Shown: positions 25,460 through 61,403, numbered from the whole stretch's first letter. The stretch is DNA of 62,550 bases, filler included, from Asterionella formosa (GCA_002256025.1; 9 parts of 9 records of this genome joined end to end with filler, not necessarily neighbours in it), one strand, 5' to 3'. Numbers and translations: made by a program. The notes: generated by a model not told the origin, from the letters alone.

Positions 25460-25559
25460 NNNNNNNNNNNNNNNNNNNNNNNNNNNNNNNNNNNNNNNNN
25501 NNNTTAATTAATTAANNNNNNNNNNNNNNNNNNNNNNNNNNNNNNNNNNNNNNNNNNNN
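25460..25559. other. Artificial contig linker (N44-TTAATTAATTAA-N44); also at 51021, 52669, 54317, 55965, 57613, 59260 and 60907
   Basis: Identical 100-bp spacers with stops in all six frames. Flanked contigs measure 25459, 25461, 1548 (x4), 1547 (x2) and 1544 bp. Confidence 0.97.
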
Positions 25560-30813: not shown

Positions 30814-33800
30814 ATGAGCGTTAGCCCCGAGAGCGCTCGTTCCGACCTGAACTTTGACACGTCTAGCGATCATGAGACAGCCTGGTCGTCCTCATTATCA
30901 AGAATCAAACAAAGCAGGCGAGTATATGGAAAGACTGGTGGTCGTCAACGCGACGCTGGCTTGGCAAAGAAGAAACGCAGGAGCATCCAACGACAACAAG
31001 AACGCGAGAGTAAACCCGACCCTGCTCACTTCGAAGATGACGAACTAAATGACGGGAATGCTTTGGACCAAATGGCTTCGGCCACGTCCCCATCGTCGTT
31101 TTGTCAGGCTGACAGTTTTCGGAAACAAATGGACCTCACTATACGCCCGAAAAGAGGCTCCCATACTCGATCATTGTCTTTCCCTGTAATGGTTGGACTT
31201 CCAGACATGGATCATTCGCGCTCTCGTCCTCCTTCTGACCCTTCTTTGACAAGTTCGTCGTCTTTGTCGGAATGCGATCTTGAAAATTTTGACCCCAATA
31301 TTATCTCACAAAATAGCCAAGATTTCAGAGAAGCAGAAACTCCCCCCTCAAAGCCACCGTTAAAGATAAAGAAGTTAGAGCTGGATTCCATCAATGAAAC
31401 CTTGAAGACTAGACCACGAAAGATACGGAACATCTCTAACTCTGGACCGCTGTCCAAAAGCTTCTCGCTTGTGGCAAATTCTGGTGAGACCTGGACCAAA
31501 GCCTCCGGCGATGACTTGCCCAGTCCAAGGGCCTCTCTCGTGTTTGATGTATGTGATCTTGATACAGCTGGATTGTCACCTGATAAGAGTATCACTGTCA
31601 GTGTGACCTCGTCTCGAAAGCGGTGCGTTTGGGAGTTCGATGACGACATCGAAGAAACCACCCAAGGATTAGGAGGCGGGGGCCTCCGTAGGTCGAGGTC
31701 TAGAGTCTTTTCTTCCTGCTCTTCTCTGAAGCTTCAAGCGTCCCACCCCTTTGTTTTTGATAATGACGAGGACGCGAACATGCGAGAAAATGAAAAAGAA
31801 TTCGAAACGTCTGATGATGATGATGACGACGACACGGAACTTGGTTCAGACATTCCTGATGATCTCTCAATGGAGGGATCTTTAGATGGTTTCTTGAACA
31901 AAAATATTCAGGTTAATGAAGGCTCCGATGAGTCATCTTTCATGCCTCCTCTCAATGTCCGACGATCAGCCTCAAAAAAGTTCGAAGATTGTGTTTTTGG
32001 AGTGTCTGGGCGGAAAAGTGTCAAGCTATCTGAGAGTGATATCCTTCGAACGATGCCTTCATACGAGAATCTCAAGTTTCTTATAAGGAGATTGCGCACG
32101 GAGAAAAAAGGAAGCGTAATCTCCTCTTTTGGAAAGAAAAACAGTTGGGCAATTGCTCCGCTAGGTTCGTGGTCGCCTGACTTACGAGTCGCATTCCTTC
32201 AATGGGGCACCAAAGTGCTTGGTTTCACTGTTCGTTCCGGTGGCGGTTCCATCGCATATCTTCAAATATCATCAACAAAAGGACTTGAATTATTGGATAC
32301 ATTAGAAGCAGCCCTTAAGGAGCACCGAGAAACTAACGGGAAAGCTAAGGCGCCGGAATCCATCGCGGTACCCATTTCCGTGGAATTCAGCATACAAAAA
32401 TCACGACAGCCGACACCTTTGTTCGATTTTTCAGTCGGCAAGCCAAGGTGTGTACATTTAATAAGGCCCTTCTGAAATTATGTTGTCTAATATTTTGTCT
32501 AACGTCTAATTTGTTTCTACAAAGCCATCGCAGTTTCGGTCTCACGCCTCTTATGGACGAAGACAACGATCTTGATTTGGAGTTACTCGATGCAGTGAAC
32601 TCCATTGGACTTACCGACAAGCCTAATCAGAATAACCGTGATTCGGTAGCGTCCCTGACTCGTCACGTCACCTTGGAACCGCGGCAAGATTGTTTGGATG
32701 GAATTGTTGACAATGATGCTCAATGCGGCAGACCGTCGAGGCATTCCGGTGAGCACCATTCAGGTGGCCTTGATTTGCTCCAGAACATGCATGGATACAG
32801 TCCCATGTCGACATCAAGGCGTCCAAGCCGACTGGCTGGCAATCGCCAGCCTGTTTGCTCTTCGCCTTTTGTTGCATCAGTACACTCTGGTGCAAGAGGT
32901 CGATACTCACATGGCAGCGAGTGTGTGGAAACCCCCATGGCCAAGTTTGGGATCGTAGATTGGGGATCACATCAAAAAGGACGAGACTGGGGAATTAGTA
33001 AATGTTGTCCAGAACTCATCCTTCACGAGTTGGTTCGTCGGTTTGAAGAACGATTATTGAATGAGGGAAATGAGCTAGAGTCTGCATGTGAGGGAGTCGA
33101 TGAAAACGCATCTGCATCATCCGTTTTTGTGAGTTTCGAAGTTGCTGGCGCTGGATCTAAAACAGGCGACCTTGGTTTTGATTTTGAAGTAGACAACGAT
33201 GCAGGAGCAAGAGAAGGCTCAGACGTGGAAGGAGATGACGATGACTTCTTGACAAGTGACATACAGGGGGGCCGTCGCAGTAGTGTGGGTGCGTCACTCT
33301 TATCAGGTCTTAATCTGAAGGACGATGAAGACAGTAAGAAGGTCGCCAGACGTCGTATGGGATCTCTCGCCAAACATCACCGAGTGTCCCTTTGTGCCCA
33401 GATGGTTGACTCTCGGGTGTCTTTGCGTCCGCGAACTTCATCGTTCGCTGCAACTGATGTTGTATATGGTTTGTCGAGACCAAACGAGCTTCTGCTCTCG
33501 TCATTTGGGATCACTGAAACGCCTCTCGAAGGAATCGAAAATTGCTCTAAATTTGAAACCTGTGCTGTACAGCAAGCGACGTCATCCATGAAGATTTTGT
33601 CCTTTGTTTTCTCATTCCTATCTGAGGTTGAACTTCTGTGTGTCACTACTCCTGTGTGCTCTTTGTGGGCTGATGCTTCCACTGAGGCCCATTCCAACCT
33701 CATGCTTATCAGCGTCGGCTGCGTTGGAAATTCTGCAGAAATAGATGATGATTTGGACGAAGAAACGGAGCGCTCTTCAGTTGCAATATCAATGGAGAGG

Positions 33801-35276
33801 CCTTGGAGTTTTCTCTTAGATCGATTCCCATGGGCGTGTTTCTTGTCGGAGGGAGCATTCAAAAGAGTTTACAAAGTCTGGAATTCACAACTTCAAGCTG
33901 AAGAGGCACTATCTGTTATGGATGTCACTGTCATCGAGGAAACAGGGAACAAACATGTTGTTGGAGCTGAGTTGGCCGTCTCGGCTCTCCTTTCCTCCCT
34001 TGTGCGAAGAAATGTGTGTCCTAACTTTGTTTTGACAAGGCAAGTATTCACCAGCCAGTATGAACCCCCAGCAAGTCACTGGGGTTGTGCTCAAAAGAAA
34101 AACCCGAAAGGCTCTTTCTATGCTCCCGGGACCAAGTTAGGACGAAAACCTAATTTACCGCAAGGCAAGCCCCAAGGGCTATTTCAGTACATGAGGATGG
34201 AATTATGTACAGAAGGCGACATTGAAGAGTTCATCAAAAGGCAGCCTGATGAGATAATGTCAACCGACGACGCCAGATACTTGTTGTTTCAAATGGCTTT
34301 CTCGCTTCATGCAGCAGCCGATCGTTTCAGCTTAAAACATTATGATGTCAAGCTTCTCAACTTTTTTCTTCAAACGATTTCTAATGTTGAAACGAAGTAT
34401 ACCGTTCTTCGGTACGGCTTAGGTTCTCATACCTTCTCAATGAGAATGGAAACTAGCCGTGCACTGGTTGCAAAGTTGGCTGACTACGGAACGGCAAATG
34501 TACAAGCAGAGTCTAACGGCCAACCTGTGACCATAGGTCACTTTACTACCCTTGAGAACACTCCTCCCGATTTTTTGATTCTTGGAGACGCTGCAACTCA
34601 AGGCCACGGACATGATGCATTTGGTCTTGGCCTCTGTATGCTCCATTTATTTACGGGACATGCACCGTACGAAGAAATTTTGGAAGAAGTCCGTTGTCCT
34701 TTAGGGCTGATGAAGAAGTTAAAGAAAATTTGGGAGGATGAAGGTGCAAGCGGATATGACGTAATCCGTTCTGTCATCCTTGCGGATGTCGAAAAGGATG
34801 AAGACGGAGTGATAACAGAAGGACAACCTGATGAAACATTTTACCATACCTTCTATCGATACCTTGTTCTACTCGGAATTCCAGAAGAAAGGTTTCATTT
34901 CAAAACCTATGGTAGAGTTTGGCGGGCAGTGTCGACTTCGATTGAGAGCGACAGAAAGCAAAGAAGGGGCTACGGGAACAACCATCCGGGAAAGAATAAA
35001 TGCCCTGATGCTGTTCAGTATGCAAATGATTGCGAGACATACTCATTGTCATGTGGAAACAATGTATTCATTGCACGCGCTCGAGATCGGCTGAAGAAAA
35101 TGGAAGGTGGCTTGGAGCTACTCCTATCACTTCTCAGTTTTGATCCCGAAAAGCGTGCGACAGCAACTGATGTACTTAACTCGTCGTTCATGGCTCAGTT
35201 GCGCGAGGGATCAAATAACATGTCATTTGATAGTGATGATCACGTCCTATCGTACATGGCCTACGCTACAACATGA
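30814..35276 (+). CDS. Large two-exon atypical Ser/Thr protein kinase with an F-box-like motif
   Basis: ORFs 30814-32447 and ~32525/32534-35276 join in frame through an intron from 32448 (GT...CTAAT...AG). Kinase motifs SEGAFKRVYK, MELC..GD, HYDVKLLN, ADYG, D.FGLG, FDPEKRATA. Confidence 0.85.
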
Positions 35277-35314: not shown

Positions 35315-36787
35315 CTAGCAAGTTGATAGACAGCCAGGGCAGTTGTGTAGTGTCTCGTGTAGATACGCGTCACAGTCAGCACATAGCACATTCTTGCAAT
35401 CCGGACACTGGAATCGAAGAATTTCTTCTCCTGCTCCATCTTGCTTATCCTTTTTCTTTGGGCAATCCTCCGATGTTATTGTTGTTCCTATCATTTTTGA
35501 GCACGCATAGCAGCACCGATCGAAGTCCTGTGACGAGGTCACCAGTGATTCGTCCATTTGAAAAATGTGGAACATACCACTCGATACTACTGACTCTTGT
35601 GCTGTTTCCGTAGCAGCAATCAAGCAAGTCTCCAGTGGAATATCAGAAAATGGCGGTACTGGGAACAAATGGTGAAAGGACCGAGCCAAATGAGGGGACA
35701 ACACCAACTTGAGTCCACATACAGCACAGTCAGTAGGTAGTTCCGAAGCCTTGGCTTGACACTGAGGACAAACATAGGCTGTCCGAGTCAATAGCTTGGT
35801 ATCACGTGTGGCGTGGACGAGCGTTGGCACGTCGCCAATGGTTCTCGTCGGGAAGCCCATTTTTACCATTTCACAGCCCATCTCATGCAAGCGCTTCAAG
35901 GCCGGGGGTGGAACACATTGTCCGCCCATCAGCCAATCTCGGAAGTGCGACTTATCGATGCATACACCCATAACACCTCCAGTTTCCTCGGCAAGCTTGC
36001 GGCAAATGTACAGTTCAGCGGAGAGGGCCAGAGCGGACACTCGTACATTCGCTGTTTGTAACCGCGGAAGAGTTTCAGTCAAAATGTTTCCTGGATCGCA
36101 CGTGGAGAGTGCTCCACACAAGACCACAATCTCACGAGATCCATGACGAGGCTGATGACCCAAAGATCGGCCTGCCACTTCCAAGCCGTTTTGCAGTGAG
36201 AATTCTCCTCCCTTTGCTGGGGGCTCCGATGCCGTCAGCAGTGAAAATGATTGGAGAGCTAACTTGTGAGATTTCGCGTTGGATGATAACTGCGTCAAAA
36301 TTTCTGCTTCCCCGTTTCGCAAGACAATAAAGCCGAGATGCGAGAGTGGATTTTGATCGTAATATTCTTGAACAAACTCTTGAAGCATCTGCAACGTGAC
36401 GTCGAGTCTTGTTCCTGGTGGCAAGACCGGATCTTTTTCTCTCATCCATCGACTGGCATCAACTAGAATGTATAAATACCGAATCATGTCACGAACAACT
36501 CGTTTTCGTTTTAGACTGTAATCTGATTGCTCCAAGCGTCGTCGCCGGCGTCGAATGGCTTCTGCTGCGGAAAGCCGATTATTGGCCACGATGATGTTCC
36601 CGTCGGCATCTTCTCGCACGGCTGTCTCCCAGGACTGCTCACCCGCTGTATCTTCCCAAACGTGCTGATTGGGAGCGTCTTCCGTGGCACCGAGAGCGGA
36701 TCCGTTCATGGCTATTACGGATGAGACGACGCTGACAGGGAAGTCTGGGTTGGAATGATGTTGCCCTTCGCTCTCGGCATGCAACAT
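35315..36787 (-). CDS. GTF2H2: General transcription factor IIH subunit 2 (p44/Ssl1)
   Basis: vWA/Ssl1 domain (EYYDQNPLSHLG, SLQNGLE, LSTCDPG), C4 zinc finger followed by SPHLARSFHHLFP, and C-terminal C1-like finger (CDAYLHETLHNCPGC). Confidence 0.95.
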   Translation of the reverse strand: MLHAESEGQHHSNPDFPVSVVSSVIAMNGSALGATEDAPNQHVWEDTAGEQSWETAVREDADGNIIVANNRLSAAEAIRRRRRRLEQSDYSLKRKRVVRDMIRYLYILVDASRWMREKDPVLPPGTRLDVTLQMLQEFVQEYYDQNPLSHLGFIVLRNGEAEILTQLSSNAKSHKLALQSFSLLTASEPPAKGGEFSLQNGLEVAGRSLGHQPRHGSREIVVLCGALSTCDPGNILTETLPRLQTANVRVSALALSAELYICRKLAEETGGVMGVCIDKSHFRDWLMGGQCVPPPALKRLHEMGCEMVKMGFPTRTIGDVPTLVHATRDTKLLTRTAYVCPQCQAKASELPTDCAVCGLKLVLSPHLARSFHHLFPVPPFSDIPLETCLIAATETAQESVVSSGMFHIFQMDESLVTSSQDFDRCCYACSKMIGTTITSEDCPKKKDKQDGAGEEILRFQCPDCKNVLCADCDAYLHETLHNCPGCLSTC

Positions 36788-39277
36788 ATCATTGCTTCGT
36801 TCGTGTCATGATGCTATTCAGGACCTTTAATAGTCCCTTTTGCATGAGAACGCACCTTCCAGTTATATGCAAATGATCTATTCATGCATGGATAAAATAA
36901 AGCGCAAAACAAACAACAAGATCAGCCATACATAGCAAACTGCTTGGTGACAGGGCCTACCGGTACATCTTCCGGTATATGGACACTCCTAAATTGGCGA
37001 CATAGGAAGGAAGTACCGGTACCGGTTTCAATAAATCATGTCCCAGAGTAGTTGAAACACGTAGAGATTCCTGATTCCAGATCAGGTTATGATAGTGTCA
37101 ATATTTTTCCATCTCTAATGACATGATTAGGAACATGTACTACAATCTACTTGATGATTGATTCAAGGAAACATGGTTAAATATCGTGTGTAAAATGCCA
37201 CAGTTAAAACAGGAACCTTTCAGGAGAAGTTCTCTCTAACCTTTTGAATGGACTCTAGAGGGCAATCATACCTAGAGGCCAAACCAATAAATAATTGACT
37301 AGACAATTACAGATATGTCCATAAACTCAAGGAACATTAAAGAAGCAAACTAGATATGATCTAATTATGATTAACAGGATCATTCTGTAAGTAGTCTTCA
37401 ATCAAACAGCATCTGGCCTAGCTACTAAGTTGAGATACTAGCTAGGTCAAGATGAGACATGTGTATTTAGGAAGAGGATGTAGTTTATTCTCAGTTCAAG
37501 TTGGGAACACAAATGAACCTTGCCTCCAAAGATCACATCTATTTTGAAGCATGCATGATCTTGGAAGTTTCAAAATTATACTTTCAAATTTACATTTACA
37601 TTATGCTTGCTCACTCCTCCTCTTTCATAAAAGCAACTATTAGCTAGTAGCAAACAAAGTAAACAAACCAATTGTGTAGAAACAATTGTTCTAAAAATTT
37701 TTACTGTCTGAGAGCTACAGATTTGTAGCATCTACCATCTTACAGGAATCATCAGGAGTGCATTTGCCAATGTGCGATGGTACCAATGACAAGTACATCA
37801 ACACATTATCCTATGATGTAAATTCTTTCATTATATATCTATCTTAACATGATGGTAATTCTGATCCAAATCACAGTTGAAAAAACTTGAAATGGATTGT
37901 ACTTTTACTCTTATATCTGGAAATGATATTGATGTTTCTATCTTCTGTGCTGCGGTAACGCAATGTTCCCCTTTTCTCTTGTCTCAATGCTCTTGATGCA
38001 TGCCTCACGCCTCCCGCCCCTTCTATGCTCTTGATTTATGCCTCCCAACTCCCTTTCACTATGATTCTGAAACTTGTCTTGCTGACAATCCCCTTTCATT
38101 TGCTCCGATTCTGAATTCATATGCGCTGTCTAATGTTTTATCCATTTTGAATTCCTTATTATAATAACAATGAGCAGGAATTACTCACTAGCCATGGGAT
38201 GCCCGAGCATTGAACTCCTCGTTGGAGTTGCTCTTGCCTAACAGATTCAATGTTGCCTTGCCAGTGGAGCTGTTGCTCAATTGTTATTTGGGAATGCTTT
38301 GAGGTTGTCTTCTGCGCAAAAACTGTAGGACCCCTTGGGTAGTGTACGCCAGCAGCATTCGAAATCAATTATAGTAATCATGAAAAAATATACATAAATG
38401 GATGAACAAAAGATAGAACTAGATCCTACGGGAGTTCTGCAGTGGAGTGTACCACAACGTGAGATCCGAAATTGGTCAGGGTGCCTCGAGAAAAATGTAA
38501 GTACAGTCCAGCAGCAACCAGAAGGTCCGGTAAAACACGTTTTTCCTTAGAAAAGATAATGCTAAATATCTCGAACACCGGACCTTCCCAGGACACTGAA
38601 GTACGGTACCGTGTATTGCAATCGCATTAACGGAAACGGTTACGGCATATTCATCCTGTGCCGGCGGTACCGGTAGATCATTACCAGGTACCGTATTCCT
38701 GGTCGTACCAGGGAATTCAACTAAGTGCATACCGGTAACGTTACCATCAGTTACCTTCGTTACTACATAACGGGTACCGGTAAACCTGCTGGTACTACCG
38801 ATACACGTACCTGGTAGTCAACCGGCATGTACTGTATACCAGTATTTCTTCCTTTTGTCATGACATCAAGCATGCCCTGTGGTACCAGTTACTTCGTCCC
38901 AGAGGATCTAATTCAAAGACAGGGTACAGGTAGGCAACTAGCTGTTTAAAAAGGTTAAGTTAGAAATCAAAGCTTACTTTGGTTTTCTATGTCGTCGAGT
39001 TCACCGCACAGATCTCTGTTCCGTACTTAATGCAAAACCAGTTGTTCCCTCAGAGGCACCATAGACTACTAAAATATGTATATCATAATTAGCACCTCAT
39101 CACACCTTTGCACCAACTAACATTTGACTACTGGTGGCTAAATCGTGAAACTTATTATTGTGAATCGCAAATGTACTTTATCATACATGCACACGTCAAA
39201 TGTTTTGGCTTTAATAATACTCCGAGTATCATTGCCGCTGTATACTTGATCGGTTAATCAACCATGCAATTCGACGT

Positions 39278-40325
39278 CTAGTTACCGTCACAGTAGTATA
39301 CTGATTGACTAAGAATGATGGAAGAAATCAGACCATAGAGCGCGATGTTACCTGCGAATACCTGAATCAAAACCATGGCGACAAACAGCTTATCTCCACC
39401 ACCGGCCTTTTTCTTGCCATCGCCTCGTCCTCCACCGTGTCCCCCGCGAGAGTTTGACTTTGCTTCCACATCGTATGTCCCAGATGATCGGACTGCTGCA
39501 TCACCGGCAATACCAATACAAAAGCCACTCCCAAGTCCACTCAGACCACAGCACAAACCTGCTGCCAGGTGGGCAGCACCAGTGAACAACGAATACTTGT
39601 TTGCCGATGTTCCGGGATCCGGGGACGAGATCGCCCCGACAAGAATGATGGCCGTAATGAGACCGTAAATTCCATTAACACCAGCCATGATGACTGGAAT
39701 TAGATTTCTCCAGATTTGCTCAGGAGAGTTGATACCAGCCTTCATGATTCCAACACCAGCTTTTGCAGTTCCAGCGGCGGCACCAATGTCTGTGAAGTAG
39801 AGGAGAGAGTGGGTTAGATGTAGGAGGTATCTATTTATTTAGTGAATCAAGGACGCTTTAAGGAATAATTCAAAATGGCGTCTTTTCACGCCCCAAAAGC
39901 TTCTTCACGATAATTGATAGACTAGCGACGCTTGCTGTGACGATTCAGCTAACAAGAGACGTTGCCGCCAATCATTCATTCTTGTTGAGTAGAGTTCATT
40001 GGTCAAAATGGTAGGACCCGTCATTTGACGCAGTTTGCTAGTCTCGTGCATTCACCCCACGCCTGATGCCGACATACCCGCATCATGCCATGGAATGATA
40101 GCATTGTTGGAGCGATATCCTATCATCATAGTCGTCGAAATGACATTGCACCTTGCCGTTTTCTAGCAACTTCCCATACCCCGATTTTATTCCGTCCAAA
40201 GAAAAGCGACTCCACGAAAGATGGTTTCCCGCAAACTCACTTGCAAAAACAACGGCCGACATGACACCCATGTACCCCAGAAAGGGAGCAATTGCCGGGC
40301 ACAGGTCGTCGGATCCAGATGACAT
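39278..40325 (-). CDS. Divergent V-ATPase V0 proteolipid subunit c-like protein (two exons)
   Basis: Exon 1 40325-40241 (MSSGSDDLCPAIAPFLGYMG...), 451-bp intron 40240-39790, exon 2 NIGAAAGTAKAGVGI...LIPVIMAG..GIYGL...HLAAGL.CGLSGL..G..IGIAGDAAVR...LYGLI. Confidence 0.9.
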
Positions 40326-40619
40326 GGTGGGCGAGTATATACCGGTAAATGAATGTCGGAACGAAAATGATGAGCGAGATGGTTTAAAGCAAAGCCCGAA
40401 CACCCGGCTGGCGATTATATTCAAGTTTGTATATCAATTAACAGCAAATATTTCTTGTCGTTGTTAGAACAGGATGGATCTCTTCGACTAAAATCTATGT
40501 CGACCGGAACCAGCAGGGACGCGGATTACATCATGATCAGCCAACGAACAACTACTTGTAAGATAGGTACGTGGGTTACACAAGCGCAACACACAAGTAG
40601 GGAATTCGCAGGAAACGAA

Positions 40620-41254
40620 AGTACCCTGTATTGGCAATTTTTGGTACATTCTTTTCAACCAGTCATCAAAATCCAGGCATACCTTGTATTGGTGGGCGTT
40701 GCAACATTTTCCAATACAAGGTATTGGTCATTTGATTTTTTTCAATACAAGGTGATATATCATTCTAATACAAGGTTCTCCTTGTATTGGAAAAAGGTCA
40801 GTATGATGTCAAGAACAACAAATACTTGTTGCCAATGTTCCGGGATTCAGGGACAAGATTGCACCAACAAGGATGATGTCAAGTCCAATACAAGGTGAAA
40901 ACATATCCAGGTATCACTCCAATTCAAGAAGGTGTTCCTTTATTTGTCATGAGAATATCATCCAATACACGGTATTCCCTGTATTGGGCTCAGTTTATTT
41001 CTCAATACAAGGTGACAACATTTTGCAATTCAAGGTTGCCCTTGTTCTTGTATTGGGTTTTGGCTGCACTTCATTATGTCCCAATACAACAAGGTCATGA
41101 GTTCCGATACAAAGTGACAACATTTTCCAATTCAAGGTTTCCCCTGTATTGGGTTTTGGCAGTATTATGTCTCATCCCAATACAAGGTCATAAGTCCCAA
41201 TACAAGGTGACAATATTGTGCAATTCAAGGTTGACCCTGTATTGGTCTATAGTG
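40620..41254. repeat. Degenerate array of CCAATACAAGG/CCTTGTATTGG motifs in both orientations, ending in TAGTG (CACTA-like subterminal region)
   Basis: About 20 imperfect copies of the 11-mer or its reverse complement. The right end reads CACTATAGACCAATACAGGG on the minus strand. Confidence 0.65.
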
Positions 41255-51020: not shown

Positions 51021-51246
51021 NNNNNNNNNNNNNNNNNNNNNNNNNNNNNNNNNNNNNNNNNNNNTTAATTAATTAANNNNNNNNNNNNNNNNNNNNNNNN
51101 NNNNNNNNNNNNNNNNNNNNCCTATGCATGTAGAGAATAGATGGTTCGAAGAAAAATGGCTCTCATCATTTTGCTTGCTCGACAAGATACAGTGCGTACC
51201 GGTAGATGGCAAAATATGGTGGACGTAGTAAACATTATTGCGTTAA

Positions 51247-52668
51247 GGGCCGTTCTTATCATTCTGTTATTTGTTGTCATTGGTGTATCATCGCCGAAAT
51301 ATGATACAAAAATGGCGGTTTGGTTTTTTTTTGTGTATCACCAACGGTTTTTTTGGTCTGATCACCGGTGTATCATGGGTGTATCACTGATACAGTTTTT
51401 GGACCCCTGACCAATGCTGTATCACTGATCAAGCCGTTGATCACTGTGTATCACGTCCGTTGCCACTGATAAAATAACTGTAAATACGCAAGCACAACAC
51501 TATTAAATATTGCGCCAACTATTTTTTGTTATATATATACTACGGTACTCTGTATACATTACCTTTCAGCTTCGTGAGTCATACAAGAATCAGTAGTCCG
51601 CTCATCTCTATACCAATCTTCCGACATCGACTATATCTCGATTAATTGGCGCAATGAGCAGCAAAGTAGTGGGTACGGCTGAAACTTCTGATGCTAAAGG
51701 GAACAAGCATTACATCAGACAATGTGTAAGCTGCATCGCCGACCAGATAAAAACCTGTGTTGAATGCTGCAACTTGATCGAAAATGGAAGTTTTTTCAAA
51801 AGCTACTTGGTCACTGCATTTTCCCGGTGCAATTACACCAAAATAAATAAATCTTGAGTCAGCATCACAAACAGCCTGGACATTGATTCCATAAGTCATG
51901 TAGTGACCGGAAAAAAATGAACCAGGGTTGTTGCCACTTTCAACTATAGTCGGGCGGTTGATGGTGGCAAGGAAGCCGTCAATAGCACCAACACATCCTC
52001 TCATCATGCCCTCTGAGCTTTTGCATTCAAAGCTGGAAGCCAATTTGATAAATTCTTCTTATTCTTTTGGAAAAATAATTTCGAGTTCTTCACAGTTTAG
52101 TACAGCATCAATGAACAAATCACGACATCGATAAAGTGAAGCAATGCTACAACCGTAGGCATGACGAATGTCGATGTAACTGCCACCAGCCAGCCATCGC
52201 AAACCAATGGCTACCACAATTTCGGGAATTATGGGCTCAGAAGTGCCACATTTGGAATAATTCCCTGCAATCTGAATTTCCAGCATGGAGGTGAGTTTTT
52301 TGAATGCTCTGTGTGACATTCTGTATGTCTTCTCGAAAGCAATCTCGTGATTGAGTTTCTCGACATGTGATTGCCAGGAGATTCTTTCGTGGTGCCACTT
52401 GTGCCTTCGTTGTCGTCGTCGTTCAGATGACTGAAGCTGCCGTTTACAGCGTCGCCTTTGTCGTTTGGATGAGTGTTCTTTTTCCTCTGCTTCCTTAGCT
52501 AAATGACAGAGGAAGAAGAAATCAAGATCACTACTGTCATCGTCATTATCATCAAGTAAATCAAATGGCGACGACATGATTCATGCAAATGTGTGTTTTT
52601 AATATTATATTTAGTTTCCCGGTAATTATATTTTGTTGTTGCTTGATATCAAGACCATCATTATATTC
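51247..52668 (-). mobile_element. Harbinger family 1, copy 2: internally deleted, transposase with a premature stop
   Basis: TAA|GGGCCGTTCTTATCATT TIR matches the 26857 end. Transposase nearly identical to copy 1 but AAA>TAA at 52059-52061, and homology ends at ~51696. Confidence 0.9.
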
Positions 52669-53394
52669 NNNNNNNNNNNNNNNNNNNNNNNNNNNNNNNN
52701 NNNNNNNNNNNNTTAATTAATTAANNNNNNNNNNNNNNNNNNNNNNNNNNNNNNNNNNNNNNNNNNNNATGTAAGAGTTCATCACTACTTACCAAAGATT
52801 TCCGAAACTGTTGCAGTCACTGGGACAGTAATTGAGCAGGTCAAGGAGATAAGTGATTTATCCTGTAATGATAAATCATTATTGAAATTATTTGATGAAG
52901 GAATTCATAAATATTTATGCGAAAGAGCGAGGAGAAGTGAAACAAAAAACATCAATTACTTGTATCGAAAGAATCGATCAAGGGAAAGGTTGCAGCTGCT
53001 GTTTTGGGATATGGCAACGAATTGGAATGTTTCAACGATCACCTTTATAGTGTTTCACCCTCTTTTTTGTGTGGAAAGCATGTCCTGCGCCCATTCTGCG
53101 TGAATTGCCAAGTATTTGATACACCTTTCCGGTTCCCACTTCCGTTGGGTCAGGAGTCACATAAGCTTTACTACAATACATACTCTCGCTCCCCCTCAGA
53201 AGTACGTCAATATTGCAGGAATGAGTATTCCCTTAAATTGTCAGAGAAGCAGTACAGGGACAATCGTATTGAACTGGACAATTGTGCATATTGGGATATT
53301 GAAATTGTGACCGCCATTGTGAAGGTCATTGCTCATGAACTGCATCGCTCAAACATTCATGTAATTGTTGAATCTCAAGACAGAAATGACTGGA

Positions 53395-54316
53395 ATGCTG
53401 AACATCTATCTGGGACAAGAAAGGCTCGACGCCGATCGTGTCCTCCGCCTCCACAGATTGTACGTGGGAGAGGTTGACAGTCTGTGGATTCCATTCGGTG
53501 TCGCAGGTTAAATGAATGTGAGTACAAGTATCAAGTTCACGCTGGGTGGGAGTGGTAGTCTCCAAGAAGATGTTTGTTCCGCTGATCTGCAGCGGAATAT
53601 CGATTTCCGTTGTCGAGATTGACAGCAGTGCCGCTTTATCGAATGGATTGTCGTTGACAACCACCCCGGAAAATCGCAATTGGTTAGGGTTGAGGAGGCT
53701 GTGTTCAAGCTTGTCGCCAAAATACAGTCCCTCATTGATAATTAAAATGAAGGTCTCTCTGCGTTGTTGGCAAGTAAATGCTGTCGCTCCGCAAACAATA
53801 GCTAGGGATGTCTCGTTCTGGTTTGTAAGCACCTGCATTGTATGGAATGACATCGCAGGCACGTCCTGTAAAGTAAAGAGGTACAAAATTACAGCCAAGA
53901 GCACAGGTGTCAGCGTGAGAGTCAAGTTCGCATTTCGCAGCGCGCTGGGTTAGTTGTGTAAGTGCAGATATAGATAATTGGTGAGACGAGAGCGGCTTCT
54001 GATGCGAAGAACGATATGCCGCTATCTCAAGTTGATCGCTTTTGCTTCGTTTTGCGCTTTCACGCCCACCAAAAGAATTGCCAGCATTTGACTTCTTCGG
54101 CGTATCCGACTTGTCGTCATCGCATGTTCCGGAGTCGCTGCCTTGTTAGAACTGATGATGGGCAGCGGAAGCAAGTTGCTTTGTTGTCATCTCGGAAATG
54201 GTACGCTTCGATCTGCCTTGCTCTCCTTTCTTGTCGCGTTCCTTTTGGACTCGATCACGCTCCTCATATGAAAGCTTTTCCCATTCTGTTGTTGAGTAGT
54301 AAGTGGTTTTCTGTGG
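53395..54316 (-). mobile_element. CoDi-type Ty1/copia gag-protease fragment (frameshifted)
   Basis: ELDSHADTCALG.NF protease motif (~53885-53935), followed by GATAF...LIINEGLYFGDKLEHSLLNPNQLR...VNDNPF and P...ELDTC.HI.LT...WNP. Confidence 0.85.
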
Positions 54317-54416
54317 NNNNNNNNNNNNNNNNNNNNNNNNNNNNNNNNNNNNNNNNNNNNTTAATTAATTAANNNNNNNNNNNNNNNNNNNNNNNNNNNN
54401 NNNNNNNNNNNNNNNN

Positions 54417-55827
54417 TCTCGCTCACTCTTCTGCACTTCTTCCGCATGCTTCTTCCTTTTTAGCTGGTCATCGACCACTTCAGGACCCAACAAGTACCTG
54501 CCTGCAGCGACATGAAGACCAGATGAGTATCGTTTATTTCTTGCAATCGCCATTAGTACTGTTTCTTTTTGTTGGCGGGCAAGTTTGTCCAGATTTATTC
54601 CGTTTCTAGCACCCTCACGATTGCGGTACTACTGTATTTTCTGATCAACAAGGGTTGCGGTGATGCCTTGGCTCACTCAAGTTTAGTCTGGATGAGGGAA
54701 TGGAAGAGGCGGGTTGATTATTGTTTGCTTCTGTCTGCAGATTTGAGGTACTTGTCAGTTGAATTTCCGGATGGAGCAGCAACAAGTTGTAGTTCAATAG
54801 ACCCCAACCTCTTTCAGTAACAGCTTTTTGGTTCGTAGCGATAAGGGCAAAGGATTCATCTCATGCTTTCGACACCAGGTCAACAATATCTTCCTTTTCA
54901 ACAGCAAATGCAGCATTGCGCCTGTCCTTTTGGGTGAGTACATCTCTCATGCACACTTGTCAGGGTAGAAATTGATGAGCTATATCCTGCCAACAACTGT
55001 GAATCATTTATTGTCATAGTAGCATGTAATTGCACTAGTGAATTAGTTGTCTTTCCCGCCTGATTTAGCTTCTACAAAAGGTACTGGACTATAAGTTTTG
55101 TTTGCCAAGCCAGTGTAGCCGCCCTCGATGCAACAATATTCGATATTGCACCATATAGCTAGTAGTAGTTTGCCATTGTTTTTTGCCTTTCAAGTTTCCA
55201 ATTCCAAAACTATATATTTTTTAAATAAGTGACACTACAGTCTTATCCAAAGAACTAGGTATCACCTTGTACTTTTGGGGGGGTTGAGGCTGTTTTCTTG
55301 CTGTTGTAGGTTTCATCGTTGTTAATGAGATGACTGCGATTTGCCTCAATTTTTGCTATGTCGGAAGCAATTTCTGCTGTGAATTACGGTCTCTGACATG
55401 AAAATATGACTCCATTTTTTGGCATTCAAGAAATATTGCATTCATCTACTAAGAGTGAGGAATTTACTCATTTAATGCTATAGTGCATGGTCAAAGGCGG
55501 TTAAATGCAACTAAATATATATTAGATATTAAATTTTCAAGACAAATGTATACATGTATTTCCCGGAGATGCCGGCTCAATGGTATAATATTTTTTTGCC
55601 ACTTTTGGGCCGATCGCTGCTTTCCGACACATTTATCTGATTATCTAAAACACAAGACCTAATTAACAACTAAATATGTTATATCCGGCGCAACATCAGG
55701 AACAACTTTGTTGTAATAAATATAGTCATAACTGGAAAATTGGAAAAAATCTATGTATACATTTTGAATATTTTATCGTTAGGTGACTCAAAGCCATTCG
55801 AAGTGGCTCAAAGCCATTTTTAAATTG
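54417..55827 (-). mobile_element. Degraded pogo-like element (relative of the CCACTT family)
   Basis: TA-flanked terminus with tandem TGGCTTTGAG(C/T)CAC subterminal units. Remnant YGAISNIVA resembles PYGAISRTVSA. C-terminal remnant KRYSSGLHVAAGRYLLGPEV. Confidence 0.5.
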
Positions 55828-55839
55828 TACCAGGTACTA

Positions 55840-55964
55840 CCGTATACTTCATTGTCCTGGACCCCCCAATGTACACTGCCGTGACTGAATTTGACTGATT
55901 TTACTTAAGGGGGGCCCAGGACAATGAAGAGATTTCCCTTATAATGGACCTAAGTAAATTTCTT
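55840..55964. mobile_element. Terminus of the TA|CCGTATAC element (same family as 1-125)
   Basis: Exact reverse complement of 1-125, preceded by TA. Confidence 0.65.
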
Positions 55965-57119
55965 NNNNNNNNNNNNNNNNNNNNNNNNNNNNNNNNNNNN
56001 NNNNNNNNTTAATTAATTAANNNNNNNNNNNNNNNNNNNNNNNNNNNNNNNNNNNNNNNNNNNNGACAAGTTCAACAGTGAATACAAAGAACAACATACC
56101 ATTGAAAACAAGTCGACAGTGTGTGCACGCACACGCCAAGCAAGTTTGAGGCAACGGACAATTCCAACAAGCAAATGACGATACAGATATCAAATTCTTC
56201 CGACGAGCAAACAACAATGAAAAGAGCCACTTGCTTTTGCTCTCTTGCTTGTTGGTATCAAAGATGCGGACAAGTTCAATAGTTAAATCAAGTACAGTAT
56301 GCCAAATGCAGAAACGAGCGAGCGATATGAAAATGAAATGCGTTCTAATCAGAATCATTCTATAACTATAGCTATGTGGACAGTAGTCTGTTACGCACAT
56401 TTTCGTATCTCCTTCTATGCTGAATCGAAATAGTAGATGTAGTATCATGTGAGAATTGAAAATTTCAATGAGAACAAGTAGAATGTGTTTGTTTACGGGT
56501 TGATTGGCGAGATTGTCATGCTGAAGTGGACAAATCAGATATATTTTGTGCGCAAAATCGGAAGTTGGTAGGGTTTATAATGTCGTTTATTTCTCTGTTC
56601 TGAATGATTGGACCATTTATAGCAGCAGCATCATGATCTACTAAACTATCAAGGAATAAACCATTATCATAGTCATCGGCATCAAAACAAACTGTTTGAA
56701 CGAAATCAATTGAACTTTCAAATGAATTATTTGAAACATCAACTAATTCAGTCTTGCGTTCAAAATTCATTGTGAAAACTTCACATGAAACAGTTAAAAC
56801 TTCACATGAAACCGTTAAAAGTAATCTTTTTTACGTGAAGAGTGGCATTAATGCATGTGAAGTACCACATAATTAACACTCATACATAGACGAAATTTCG
56901 AAAAGTGGCGTATTTTGCGGCTTAGATGTAGTATTGCACAAAATAAACATTCTGACCAAAAATTGGAAGGACCATCATAATGTGGCTTCTTATTAGATAA
57001 AAAATAAAAATATATAATTGCCAAGAGTTCATACCCGCAAATACTTGTAAGTCCACCAATCCACCAGCTGCAAGATAAAAAATTGTATGCATGTTCACAA
57101 ATCATCCAAGTTAAGGTGA

Positions 57120-57612
57120 CTAACCAGCACAAGTCGAGCTTTTTTTACAGGAACTGCTGCAGTTGCAAATCAGTGGTGGGCAAACAGCTATTCCTTCTGA
57201 AGGTGCAATACTACATGCTTCTGTTGGAACTGTGCCTGTAAAATTGTTCATTCCAAGAGATAATACAGCTGCCAAGAAAGTGAAATATTAGCACAAACAT
57301 TCAAGAAATATAAATTTAGGCTCAAATAACTCACTCAATGCAGACATGAGACCAATTTCTGAGGGAATTATACCAGTAAACTTATTTTTCCCAATATAAA
57401 ACTCTATGGCATTTGTTAAATGGCCAATTTCTGATGGAAGTGCACCAGTCAACTGGTTTTCGTCTACATAGAAAATTGTTAGATTTGTCAAATATCCAAT
57501 CTCTGTAGGAAGTGTGCCATTGAAATCATTGGAATTTGCTTCAAAATCTGTGAGAATTGTCAAATATCCAATCTCTGTAGGAATAGTACCAGTGAAGTTA
57601 TTATAGCTGACA
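57120..57612 (-). CDS. 3' part of a plant-type LRR (receptor-like) protein, partial
   Basis: 24-aa repeats N.(F/L)TG.(L/I)P(T/S)EIG.LT.L. Intron 57334-57269 (GTGAG...GGCAG). Cys-rich end CPPLICNCSSSC, stop at 57120-57122. Confidence 0.8.
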
Positions 57613-57804
57613 NNNNNNNNNNNNNNNNNNNNNNNNNNNNNNNNNNNNNNNNNNNNTTAATTAATTAANNNNNNNNNNNNNNNNNNNNNNNNNNNNNNNN
57701 NNNNNNNNNNNNGGTACCAGGGGTAATTTGTCCGGTAGAACTGAACTGATGAATGATGCTTCCATCGCTTCCATGCTTCTCCTTTCAGTCCCCTTCGTCG
57801 CGTA

Positions 57805-59124
57805 ATGGCAGATCCTTCCTCATCAACAGATCACGATAACGGTCCAACTGCTCCCAATGGTGATAAATCGAACCGCGAGCGAGATCACGTTGACTACAGG
57901 GACCTCGGCGGTCCTGCTCTCTCGCTGTTGTGGTCCAGCGAACCGCTGACGGGACAATCCCTTTATCTCGGAGGCGAAGTGGGCTGTGATGGAAGAATTT
58001 ACTGTATTCCTGGTCATGCCAAACGAGTTTTGGTCATTGATCCCTCCACAGATATGGTGTATCCCATTGGTCCCATTTTGCCCGGAAAATACAAGTGGTT
58101 GCGAGGGATTGCGCAAGGAGACGTTGTTTATGGGTTACCCTGCAGCGCGGATTCGGTCTTAAAAATTCATGTTCCAACTGGAGAAATCACAAATCTGTTA
58201 ATACCGTATGATGAATTTTACCATTCTCCTGAAATCGCGAAAGGGCAACGCGAGATAGAGTGGAAATACCATGGAGGAACGACAAGCCCGAAAGACGGCT
58301 GTATCTATGCCATTCCGCAGTCCGCGTGGCATGTGTTGCGGATTGATCCACTGACAGATATTTGCTCATTTGTTCCATCAATACCTATGAAGGGTCGATA
58401 CAAGTTTTATGGTGGACTTGTAGGAAAACACGATGGAGCCATTTATGGAATCCCCCACAATGCAACATCCGTCTTGAGAATCGATCCCTCTCAGGAGCAG
58501 GTAGTTACTCTGCACGGAAATTTCGGAGAAGGACGGCACAAGTGGCACGGGGCTGCATCTGCATCTGACGGAACGATCGTAGCTGTCCCAGCCAATGCAG
58601 ATACCGTGCTTTGTATTACACCTGCAAGTCCTGAACCAATACTATTTGAGTTGGGTAATCCAGATGTGGTCCGAACAGGCCGCCACCGATCCGATGGTAA
58701 ATACAAATATCTTGGAGCCATGATGGGAACCAATGGAAAAGTGTATTGCTTTCCATCGGGTGCTGAATTCACATTAGAAGTCGACACAACGACTCGTGGC
58801 GTAAGGAATGTGGGCCCGAATCTCGTCGATGCTCGAATGGAGACTAAGATTCAAAACAAGTGGCAAAATGGTTTAACGAGTACTGCAGAGCAATGCGTTT
58901 ATGCTATTCCATTGAGTGCTGAGACAGTCTTGCGAATTGACAATTCATCCAAGGACTCGCCTCTGATTTCCACTTGGAAACTTCCGTCGCAGCAAAAAGA
59001 AGTCCTTGCCAAGTGGGAGGGTGGAACCATAGCACCAAACGGTGCCATGTATTGCATGCCTAATAATCATAAGGCAGTATTGAAAATCACCCCGTCCACC
59101 ATGACAATCCCAGTGACACTGTAG
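57805..59124 (+). CDS. Beta-propeller-like repeat protein
   Basis: 439 aa with ~8 repeats of K(W/Y).GG....DG.IY.IP..A..VL.ID. Confidence 0.85.
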   Translation: MADPSSSTDHDNGPTAPNGDKSNRERDHVDYRDLGGPALSLLWSSEPLTGQSLYLGGEVGCDGRIYCIPGHAKRVLVIDPSTDMVYPIGPILPGKYKWLRGIAQGDVVYGLPCSADSVLKIHVPTGEITNLLIPYDEFYHSPEIAKGQREIEWKYHGGTTSPKDGCIYAIPQSAWHVLRIDPLTDICSFVPSIPMKGRYKFYGGLVGKHDGAIYGIPHNATSVLRIDPSQEQVVTLHGNFGEGRHKWHGAASASDGTIVAVPANADTVLCITPASPEPILFELGNPDVVRTGRHRSDGKYKYLGAMMGTNGKVYCFPSGAEFTLEVDTTTRGVRNVGPNLVDARMETKIQNKWQNGLTSTAEQCVYAIPLSAETVLRIDNSSKDSPLISTWKLPSQQKEVLAKWEGGTIAPNGAMYCMPNNHKAVLKITPSTMTIPVTL

Positions 59125-59359
59125 CTAATGCCAGTATAAAGGAATCCATTTAGCAGTGCTGGTAGTTGCTTATACTGGCCCCTTTTGGTACCAGGTACCC
59201 TGAAATAGGAATATGAGCGAAAGCTTCATCTCCATCGCCAGATTTGCTGTTCTCACAGGNNNNNNNNNNNNNNNNNNNNNNNNNNNNNNNNNNNNNNNNN
59301 NNNTTAATTAATTAANNNNNNNNNNNNNNNNNNNNNNNNNNNNNNNNNNNNNNNNNNNN

Positions 59360-59822
59360 TGGGGAGAGTGAAGACAATGGTGGAGCAACATCTGCCGCTT
59401 ATGCTAATTTTTCTGGTTCAAGATTTCCTCGACCTATGGTGTCCCCTCGATTTAGAGATAAGGCAGTGTCAAACAATACTGGGCCTACTCGAACTGATAC
59501 TGATAACCTGCAGCAGCAACAACAACAGCAGCAACAACTGCAGCAACAGAACATGATGAACATGATGATGATGTCAATCATGGCATCACTGTTGAATCTG
59601 CATGGGGTATCTCAAGCAACCACCTCCACTGACAGTGCCAATCCCACTCAGGCAATTATGAATTCAATTATTGCTTCAAACATGATTTCAATGCAGCAAA
59701 CAATGCAAAGCCAGAATCCAACCTCGACAGCAGGTGCCAATGCACAACAAACTTTGTCTGCCTCAACTCAATGTCAAACACCAAAAAAAAACAGTGGTAG
59801 CAGTAGTAGTGATGACGAATAA
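59360..59822 (+). CDS. C-terminal part of the Harbinger family-2 partner protein (partial)
   Basis: Q/M-rich tail IASNMISMQQ shared with 44351-44545. Convergent with the transposase. Confidence 0.55.
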
Positions 59823-59899
59823 CAACCTTAAATTAATTCATTCTAATATAATGTGAAAGAAGTGCTGCTAAATAATCATGAAGGAATAATTTCTTTGAA

Positions 59900-60906
59900 T
59901 TACATGGCATATCTATTTGCATTCCTATGCAAATAGGGCATATGCACAGAAGCAATTTGGTTCTGACCAACTTTGCTAGCACGAAAGTTGTAGAGCAATA
60001 CAATCATTTGGAGAATTAATTTTCTCTCACCTTTTTCTTTATAACGAAATTTGTCTTTGATTCTCGGAAATGATCCCTGAAGGCATCGCATTCCCCATTC
60101 CGACAGCTGTCGGATGGAGGTGGCTTGGCGATTCATACCAAATCTTTGTCGAGGATTACCATTTGCATCAACATTGTTTTGATGTGATTTCAACATTGCA
60201 TTTGATTTCATAGATGCAAATGCTGAATCCACAACTACTTTTTTGCCTGTATCGCTGTAAACTGTTTCAATCTGATCATAGATCGATGACCAAATTGCCA
60301 TGGTGGAGTCATGTAGAACACCAGGTGCATCGAAATATGAGCAGCGAATTTTTCCATCAGGCGAAAAAAGAAACAAGTTTGTCACATAGTGTTCATGGGT
60401 CCATCCATTGTAGAAGTTGTTCTGCTGTGTTTCATTTCCAGCCCGTTGCAGGGTCAGTTTCAGACCATCCATTGCTCCCCAACAATTTGTTATAAGTGGG
60501 TATTTCTGATTGATCATGGTTGCAAACAAGGTGGCTTCGTCTACAGTAGGCAGTCTCACAACGGCATCTTCATGTGTCAGCAGTACTTTTACAATCATTC
60601 GCCTTGAAAACCTCAACCAAACACTCAAAGAACCATGAGTTAATCCGAAAATAATCTGAAGAATCATATAGGAACCACGAGTCCTGGTCCATGCTAACCC
60701 AAGCGCTAGACAACTGATGGAACAGAGGTATCTTTGCCGACCTTTCTTTGTTGTTGAATTTCTAACAATGAAATCCGTATTTTTCCTACAGGGAGTGAAG
60801 GAATAAAAACAAGGTTTGAACAGCTGGTGTAGGAGCTCGAAAGAAGCATGGTCAAACCCACACAAGGTAATCAGAGCATCATCATGCTTGCTGTTGAACA
60901 AAGTCC
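59900..60906 (-). CDS. Harbinger-type DDE_Tnp_4 transposase (family 2), open frame, 5'-truncated
   Basis: CWGAMDGLK, FYNGWTHEHYV, FSPDG, PG..HDS, VVDSAF, RQLSEWGMR.LQGSFPR. Confidence 0.9.
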
Positions 60907-61403
60907 NNNNNNNNNNNNNNNNNNNNNNNNNNNNNNNNNNNNNNNNNNNNTTAATTAATTAANNNNNNNNNNNNNNNNNNNNNNNNNNNNNNNNNNNNNN
61001 NNNNNNCTGGCACCTTGAAGTTGATCATGTCTCGATCACTTCCCTTGAGACTAACTGGTTGGGAATAGCTCAAGGATTGTATCGAGGCATGCAAAAATCA
61101 CCAAAGATGTTCGAGGTGTCTCAAGCAGGAGGTGTCCAATTTGTCAACGGAATATTCGAATTCGCAGGAGTGATGCATTACAGCTGACGGGTATGCCCGG
61201 TGTTCCCGGAAAGGACCTGACACTGTTTCGTTGTACAATGCGCTCACAGCAAAAATGGTGGTTTCTATCTGAGGCAGACGAAGAGCAACTGGGAACGAAT
61301 AGAGACATTGATTATTACCAGCACAAGTCGAAGGAAGATGAGGAGTTGCAACCTCCCGAAATGCCGGCATTGATCCTCCACCGCAGACCAAACGCGTTGT
61401 CGA

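Follow-up and report, generated by a model that had tools for sequence, protein, structure and literature searches.

Asterionella formosa encodes a V-ATPase-type proteolipid in which the essential glutamate of helix 4 is replaced by a neutral amide cluster, made up of Gln at position -4, Gly at position 0 and Asn at position +1 of helix 4 and of a further Asn in helix 2. This acid-less proteolipid is real and conserved, and it belongs to the proteolipid superfamily, in which it is closest to subunit c. Its family is large and extends across the diatoms, and a sister subfamily with Ser or Gly at the same site reaches the Parmales. To our knowledge, every eukaryotic V-ATPase proteolipid (c, c' and c'') is taken to carry one essential Glu.

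Results

Gene structure and transcripts

The gene is located in a stretch of A. formosa DNA of 62,550 nucleotides, filler included, which was analysed as a whole and is referred to as the window. The features were derived from the translation and, for the ion site and the insert, from alignments.

40325-39278, minus strand: whole gene from ATG to stop codon, two exons
40325-40241, minus strand: exon 1, which opens with the start codon (40325-40323) and spans 28 codons and one further base, the first of a split Asn codon
40240-39790, minus strand: intron of 451 nt (GT..AG), beginning with GTGAGT and ending with AG
39789-39278, minus strand: exon 2, encoding the remainder of helix 1, helices 2 to 4, the insert and the C-terminal YYC motif; stop codon TAG at 39280-39278
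39129-39277, minus strand: 3' untranslated region; RNA contigs of runs X1, X4 and X7 start at 39129-39132, and the true RNA end is not fixable from contigs
39674-39676, minus strand: helix-2 Asn codon in MAGVNG (Leu in canonical c)
about 39395-39478, minus strand: insert rich in Gly, Lys and Arg, about 28 residues long, in the helix 3-helix 4 loop
39362-39364, minus strand: helix-4 Gln codon, one helical turn before the Gly (Leu in canonical c)
39352-39350, minus strand: Gly codon GGT at the essential helix-4 Glu position, within V-F-A-G-N-I
39347-39349, minus strand: helix-4 Asn codon directly after the Gly (Ala in canonical c)

The coordinates and residues given in the initial annotation agreed with the sequence and its translation. 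Exon 1 encodes the lumenal N terminus, in which a Cys-Pro is conserved, and the N-terminal half of helix 1; its translation is matched by the N termini of full-length homologues, and 40241-40330 is covered by an RNA contig. Of 22 listed public runs, 20 contained the stretch at least in part, 19 of these 20 being recorded as RNA (17 studies), and RNA contigs from four runs of three studies were compared with the gene. Exon 2 was covered in all four runs at 99 to 100% identity, and contigs spanning 39129-39680 showed zero or one difference from the genome. The sole recurrent difference in exon 2 was 39512 A>G, which is synonymous (GGT to GGC on the coding strand). The insert was retained, and the Gly codon was unchanged in the contigs of all four runs, an agreement that low-level editing could escape since rare variants are dropped from contigs; a Glu codon in the reads, which had been named as a sign of an assembly error, was thus not encountered in these contigs. 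In X1, a contig with a depth of 762 departed from the genome at 39691-39692, and a variant contig with a depth of 9.65 (versus 2332) overlapped 39324-39383, its single difference being unplaced.

The reading frame and the splice sites had been described as intact. The frame is indeed open to the TAG; the splice joint (39789/40241, skipping 451 nt) was also seen, but in one of the four runs (X2) and in a single 58-nt contig with flanks of 28 and 30 nt, a length that the tool classes as short, and with CT..AC ends on the plus strand. Intron-retaining contigs of 503 nt were found in X1, X2 and X4 at depths of 10 to 80, versus about 930 to 1930 for exon 2. The exon junction reads ..VFAN-IGAAAG.., as it does in full-length homologues. 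We also considered a hidden intron with the donor-like sequence CAG/GTAAC at the Gly codon, but this candidate was rejected: read-through fits the family alignment, and the RNA contigs of the four runs ran straight through, with no splice joint at this position.

At the 5' end, the genome match of one X2 contig stopped at 40330, 5 nt before the ATG, and was followed by 31 unrelated letters; the genome has no AG acceptor at 40330, and the contig may be chimeric or reflect a strain difference.

Several other observations were made in the surroundings of the gene. A 67-nt piece of exon 2 (39584-39650, covering the last part of helix 2 and the loop after it) recurs in the same orientation at 40813-40878, about 490 nt upstream of the start codon (85% identity; blastn E value of 6.6e-15), and appears to be a short fragment of a gene within the promoter region. 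A short repeat array, AATACAAGG together with its reverse complement, is clustered at 40680-41200 directly upstream of the gene; seven of its eight forward occurrences in the 62.5-kb window lie at 40713-41199, and reverse copies are present at 40682 and 40780. Paired 44-base N runs recur every 1648 bases from about 51 to 61 kb (51021-61006) and are also found at 25460-25559, a spacing that points to a masked tandem repeat with a unit of about 1.65 kb. The flanking reading frames, judged by eye, encode a protein kinase-like product (32349-35276, plus strand) and a TFIIH p44/SSL1-like product with a zinc-finger-like Cys pattern at its C terminus (35315-36805, minus strand); they lie about 2.5 kb or more from the gene and have no obvious link to a pump gene.

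The ion site carries amides instead of a carboxylate

In phmmer alignments with PDB sequences, the Gly was aligned with a Glu, namely that of FAE in plant subunit c (36qu_g) and that of FSE in yeast c' (5tj5_D, 6m0r_D and 5vox_S). The same position was obtained in alignments with canonical c subunits of the diatom, raphidophyte, plant and animal/fungal types, which bears out the proposal that Gly occupies the site of the invariant Glu. The rewrite of helix 4 comprises three fixed residues: Leu to Gln at -4, Glu to Gly, and Ala to Asn at +1. Helix 2 reads MAGVNGIYGL and is free of acids, and none was found in any other membrane helix of the encoded protein. A relocation of the Glu as in c'' had been dismissed from the start, and rightly so: besides the acid-free helix 2, none of the 120 best matches of 665 homologues described below had an Asp or Glu between positions -6 and +8 relative to the Gly. 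The view that the membrane part lacks a protonatable carboxylate therefore holds for the protein. The polar Asn residues noticed in both helices were confirmed at 39674-39676 and 39347-39349, as was the G/K-rich insert ahead of helix 4 (about 39478-39395), which ends with KKK-x-GGG-D-K immediately before the helix; canonical c has no such insert.

Fold and fixed changes

The assignment to subunit c that underlay the initial annotation was substantiated by profile, sequence and structure comparisons. Pfam PF00137 (ATP-synt_C) was recognised in two stretches with an E value of 2.3e-20 and 73 bits (cut-off of 24). The best matches among PDB sequences were V-ATPase c and c' (phmmer E values of 8e-29 to 1e-20), led by plant subunit c (36qu_g, 8e-29) and followed by yeast c' and c and by mammalian c. 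An AlphaFold2 model was made for a homologue from Fragilaria crotonensis with 80% identity, based on an alignment of 15 rows (mean pLDDT of 84, pTM of 0.78). It has four helices (residues 10-44, 49-79, 94-143 and 159-189); helix 4 runs through Gly-Asn without a break, and helix 3 reaches into the insert, where confidence is lower. The top Foldseek matches of the model were V-ATPase c chains, with TM scores of up to 0.93 (human and porcine c) and an rmsd of 1.6 to 1.9 (human, bovine and porcine c). The model of the homologue thus has the double-hairpin, four-helix fold of solved c subunits, and none of the 46 Foldseek matches with E values of ≤0.001 was a solved c-like protein outside the rotary ATPases.

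We then set 119 members of the family against 20 canonical c subunits of stramenopiles and counted as fixed those differences that reached at least 90% in each set (Fragilaria numbering). There were 17: M53W, I56L, L65N, V72T, V74I, A113G, A114S, V121A, V129C, I168V, L171Q, I172V, E175G, A176N, G178A, A185S and L186I. They cluster at the ion site, along a stripe of helices 2 and 4, and at both stalk-side loops. Six of them are polar gains in membrane helices (Asn65, Thr72, Ser114, Gln171, Asn176 and Ser185). Trp53 is part of the loop that joins helices 1 and 2, and the insert is part of the one that joins helices 3 and 4; we take both loops to be at the cytoplasmic face. Across the family, the insert has 25 to 70 residues, is basic and ends with KKK-x-GGG-D/E-K-L-F. 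Positions 57-64 and 66-71 of helix 2 have the canonical majority residue, except for position 59 (Ile at 0.58 versus Val), and most glycines of helices 1 and 3 as well as two Cys residues near the N and C termini are as in canonical diatom c. The helix-2 Asn may correspond to Gln65, a Na+-binding residue of Enterococcus hirae NtpK; in the Foldseek search, 2bl2_A was no more than a fold match.

Conservation and selection

A word-indexed search gave 665 homologues with E values of ≤1e-5, the best 120 of which, including the window's own product, were examined (52 to 100% identity). Orthologues sharing the FAGN and AGVNG signatures had been called for, and indeed all 120 have QVFAGN as their helix-4 motif and GVNG as their helix-2 motif. 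Together with the basic insert ending with KKK-x-GGG and the C-terminal YYC, these motifs are the features of the family, and the protein of the window has all four. A scan of metagenome contigs yielded 43 loci, and 29 distinct coding sequences, including that of the window, entered a codon alignment. The Gly was encoded by GGT (12 sequences), GGA (9), GGG (4) or GGC (4) and was never replaced, although a single base change would turn GGA or GGG into a Glu codon. The other three residues were invariant in the 29 sequences as well, with both codons in use: AAC (20) and AAT (9) for the helix-4 Asn, CAA (23) and CAG (6) for Gln, and AAC (16) and AAT (13) for the helix-2 Asn. Nine further loci encoded VFSGN with the same Gln, Gly and Asn, a marine subgroup that includes L029-L032, L035 and L037-L039.

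Over 116 gap-free codons, the mean pS was 0.80 and the mean pN was 0.21. The dN/dS determination that had been suggested was carried out and gave a median omega of 0.094 for the 73 of 406 pairs with a finite dS, a value that is only indicative because synonymous sites are saturated (all of these dS values were above 1, and no pair had a dS below 1). The acid-less gene is under purifying selection. It had been conceded that an unexpressed, neutrally evolving gene would have undermined the case, but RNA was present in all four runs, nonsynonymous change lags far behind synonymous change, and the orthologues are conserved.

The named family members, among the matches listed and the cluster look-ups, were all diatoms. 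Fragilaria crotonensis (KAI2507126.1 and KAI2513255.1) and Aulacoseira subarctica have two acid-less paralogues each, and further members came from Fistulifera solaris, Phaeodactylum tricornutum, Ditylum brightwellii, Helicotheca, Licmophora, Thalassionema and Thalassiothrix and from sources with labels starting with Odont-, Astr-, Cyclop- and Eucampia. Several members are MMETSP transcripts and are therefore expressed. An orthologue from Thalassiosira pseudonana was not identified among the matches listed. Identity among diatoms was 52 to 85% within the acid-less family versus 97 to 99% for canonical c among most diatom matches. The acid-less family thus evolves much faster than canonical c, which fits a changed role as well as a role in the rotor.

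Two homologues had unusual structures. The Phaeodactylum tricornutum protein P0490 (168 aa) is without the basic insert, and at precisely this point the near-identical metagenome loci L023 and L024 encode the insert in frame; the public gene model may have removed it as a false intron. The metatranscriptomic sequence P0004 was compared over 40346-40239 and 39808-39281 of the window. In the translated 5' leader and exon 1, 35 of 36 residues were identical, with the mismatch at the splice junction, and identity to exon 2 was 81% (85% in another alignment and 75% over a longer tblastn span). No second exon 2 is present in the window, and P0004 could represent a second copy sharing the 5' part, gene conversion or a chimeric contig.

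Relatives and phylogeny

An exhaustive search of representative sequences returned 2311 proteins with E values of ≤0.001. Examination of the best 150, together with cluster look-ups, revealed three more groups of stramenopile c-type proteins besides the family of the window. The canonical c group has IFAEALGLYGL and no insert, and its diatom members are 87 to 88% identical to raphidophyte c. The second acid-less group has Gln, Ser-Asn (Gly-Asn in Attheya), a helix-2 Leu and an insert with SWKKMGF; it occurs in Pseudo-nitzschia multiseries, MMETSP diatoms, Attheya and the Parmales alga Tetraparma gracilis (GMI29331.1). The third group retains the Glu (IFSEALALYGL); its helix 1 is rich in Trp, and the loop that holds the insert in the acid-less groups contains one that is acidic and rich in Gly and Asp. 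This diatom family (P0150, P0308, P0316 and P0147) sits on a very long branch (length of 1.9). The marine sequence P0176, with Gly at the acid site and no insert, also has a very long branch and is unplaced.

In a maximum-likelihood tree (52 rows, 194 columns, LG+C20+F+G4, careful search), the family formed its own clade with a support of 98/99 and with the protein of the window inside it, within a clade of araphid pennates (Fragilaria, Licmophora, Thalassionema and Thalassiothrix; 97/95). The second acid-less group had a support of 100/96, and the two acid-less groups were joined as sisters (91/89, not starred). A single loss of the Glu before the split of diatoms and Parmales is the simplest reading, but it is not proven because the rows were hand-picked (24 of 120 family matches), the eight outgroup rows are long-branched and the root was not inferred.

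The gene had been called a paralogue, and a check for canonical c genes elsewhere in the genome had been suggested. Such genes do accompany the acid-less paralogues in relatives: canonical c (KAI2513320.1) is found beside KAI2507126.1 and KAI2513255.1 in Fragilaria crotonensis, where the contigs of KAI2513320.1 and KAI2513255.1 are listed with equal lengths, and canonical c also co-occurs with the acid-less paralogues in Aulacoseira subarctica. Within the window, a tblastn search with five c-type proteins and the exon-1 peptide detected no second c gene, only this gene and an 18-residue fragment. A search of the ESM Atlas returned generic proteolipid clusters only.

Comparison with known rotor subunits

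The protein has the same architecture as subunit c (yeast Vma3, human ATP6V0C and plant VHA-c), a double hairpin of four helices in which each half belongs to PF00137. Over 176 alignment columns, it has 50% identity with canonical diatom c, and it shares with subunit c the N-terminal Cys-Pro, the glycine packing motifs, IPVxMAG..IYGL in helix 2 and LYGLI in helix 4. Unlike subunit c of the Vma3/ATP6V0C type, it does not have the defining helix-4 Glu, and it differs further in the fixed Gln (-4) and Asn (+1), the helix-2 Asn, the basic insert and its own clade.

As a specialised c paralogue that is proposed to take a single position in one ring, it resembles c' (Vma11) and c'' (Vma16 and ATP6V0B), and c' was indeed among the best sequence matches (E value of about 2e-22). 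However, c' retains the helix-4 Glu in the alignment where the protein of the window has Gly, and in the tree this protein groups only with diatom sequences. We know of no c' outside the fungi. The essential Glu of c'' resides in the helix equivalent to helix 2, and c'' has an extra N-terminal helix; the protein described here has four helices instead of five and an acid-free helix 2, and c'' chains were weak matches (E values of 7e-10 to 9e-8). A further parallel is the second acid-less subfamily (FASN type), which likewise has Gln at -4, Asn at +1, Ser or Gly for Glu and an insert in the same loop, but which differs in its helix-2 Leu in place of Asn and in the insert motif SWKKMGF.

Rotors with missing ion sites do exist in prokaryotes. 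The rotor of Acetobacterium woodii works with a subunit that lost one ion site, and natural rotor rings built from archaeal multi-hairpin c subunits work with some outer helices that lack the site. The A. woodii c1 structure (PDB 4BEM) was a structural match of the model (4bem_J; E value of 4.7e-5). Unlike the diatom protein, which has none, these subunits keep at least one carboxylate per chain, and they belong to prokaryotic synthases or ATPases that are coupled to Na+ or H+.

Discussion

What does a proteolipid do that cannot carry a proton at the usual site? Our preferred reading, held tentatively and at slightly less than an even chance, is that of a proton-blind c paralogue that co-assembles with Glu-bearing c in the V0 ring. 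Since the parts that build the ring are kept, entry into the V0 ring is most likely, and the acid-less paralogue would sit there among canonical Glu-bearing c subunits. The amides would offer hydrogen-bond partners at the former carboxylate site, and the site would pass the stator (subunit a) without uptake or release of a proton. The Glu count of the ring sets the number of protons per ATP; every acid-less subunit would therefore cut the protons moved per turn and hence per ATP, and with fewer protons per ATP the pump could build a steeper maximum pH gradient. Three amides are fixed around the empty acid position, and therefore the site probably still interacts with something; the most plausible partner would be the stator arginine in passing, with no proton carried. 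The basic insert is predicted to project from the ring face that holds subunit d and the central stalk, where it may set the position of the subunit in the ring or recruit a partner, but where it could also clash with subunit d.

A tooth without Glu might also block the rotor instead of passing the stator. In yeast, replacement of the essential Glu in any one of the proteolipids Vma3, Vma11 and Vma16 abolishes pump activity, and in the c subunit of the E. coli Fo, exchange of Asp61 for Gly or Asn is null and dominant-negative. We therefore considered a rotor brake or regulator, whose incorporation would halt rotation and leave sealed V0 sectors that neither pump nor leak, for roles such as storage, membrane fusion or signalling, or whose copy number would tune activity. 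Loss of the carboxylate is the classic inactivating rotor change, and the kept ring-building helices, the strong conservation and the presence in RNA libraries are all compatible with such a protein. If braking were the purpose, however, loss of the Glu alone would suffice, yet the Gln and both Asn residues are invariant while their codons vary synonymously, which argues that the site itself is still active in something. On balance, we regard a brake as unlikely.

The same polar residues could also serve outside the V-ATPase, in a ring or pore that the proteolipid forms alone or with other divergent diatom paralogues and that conducts or binds a species other than protons by way of the polar stripe of helices 2 and 4. 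Six fixed polar gains in membrane helices, the evolution at a faster pace than canonical c, and the basic insert, to which an acidic insert in the same loop of the Glu-retaining diatom family corresponds, would suit such a complex. But no partner, substrate or gene neighbourhood suggests another role, the helix faces and glycine motifs that build a V0 ring are retained, and the 46 Foldseek matches to the model with E values of ≤0.001 were without any solved non-rotary c-like protein, so that we give this explanation only a small probability. Finally, there is next to no probability that the gene is a pseudogene in decay, that its transcript is edited or that the sequence arose from an error of assembly or sequencing, in view of the match of all four RNA runs to the genome at the codon, the Gly in all 120 best matches, the saturated synonymous sites next to a pN of 0.21, the intact reading frame and the observed splice joint.

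To return to the proton-blind ring subunit, a more far-reaching version of it is conceivable. Diatoms and Parmales, their silica-plated sister group, may have evolved a specialised set of rotor-ring paralogues, namely two acid-less families with an amide cluster and a polar stripe on helices 2 and 4 and one Glu family with an acidic insert. Together, these might form a separate kind of V0 ring in which each turn involves fewer proton sites, a dedicated pump with a high gradient or a different gating that would act in compartments such as the silica deposition vesicle or at the membranes surrounding the plastid. We consider this version doubtful and put it forward as speculation; if it were true, it would be the first case of a eukaryotic V-ATPase whose own make-up alters the H+/ATP stoichiometry.

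The evolution of the diatom V-ATPase is reportedly the subject of a paper by Bussard and Lopez from 2014. Databases name the family members simply V-type ATPase proteolipid subunit, and this plain label hides the difference at the acid site. A search of the full-text literature, with subscription literature outside its reach, found no description of acid-less diatom proteolipids, and passages from 10.64898/2026.10.01.756066 and PMC4976316 contained nothing on them.

A conserved c paralogue that is represented in RNA and has no carboxylate questions the rule of one Glu per proteolipid, and the diatom rotor may contain a tooth that carries no proton. Since Phaeodactylum has an orthologue, the idea is genetically testable. 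Diatoms are one of the main groups of primary producers in the ocean, and the acid-less paralogue offers a concrete handle on how pH is set in their acidic compartments.
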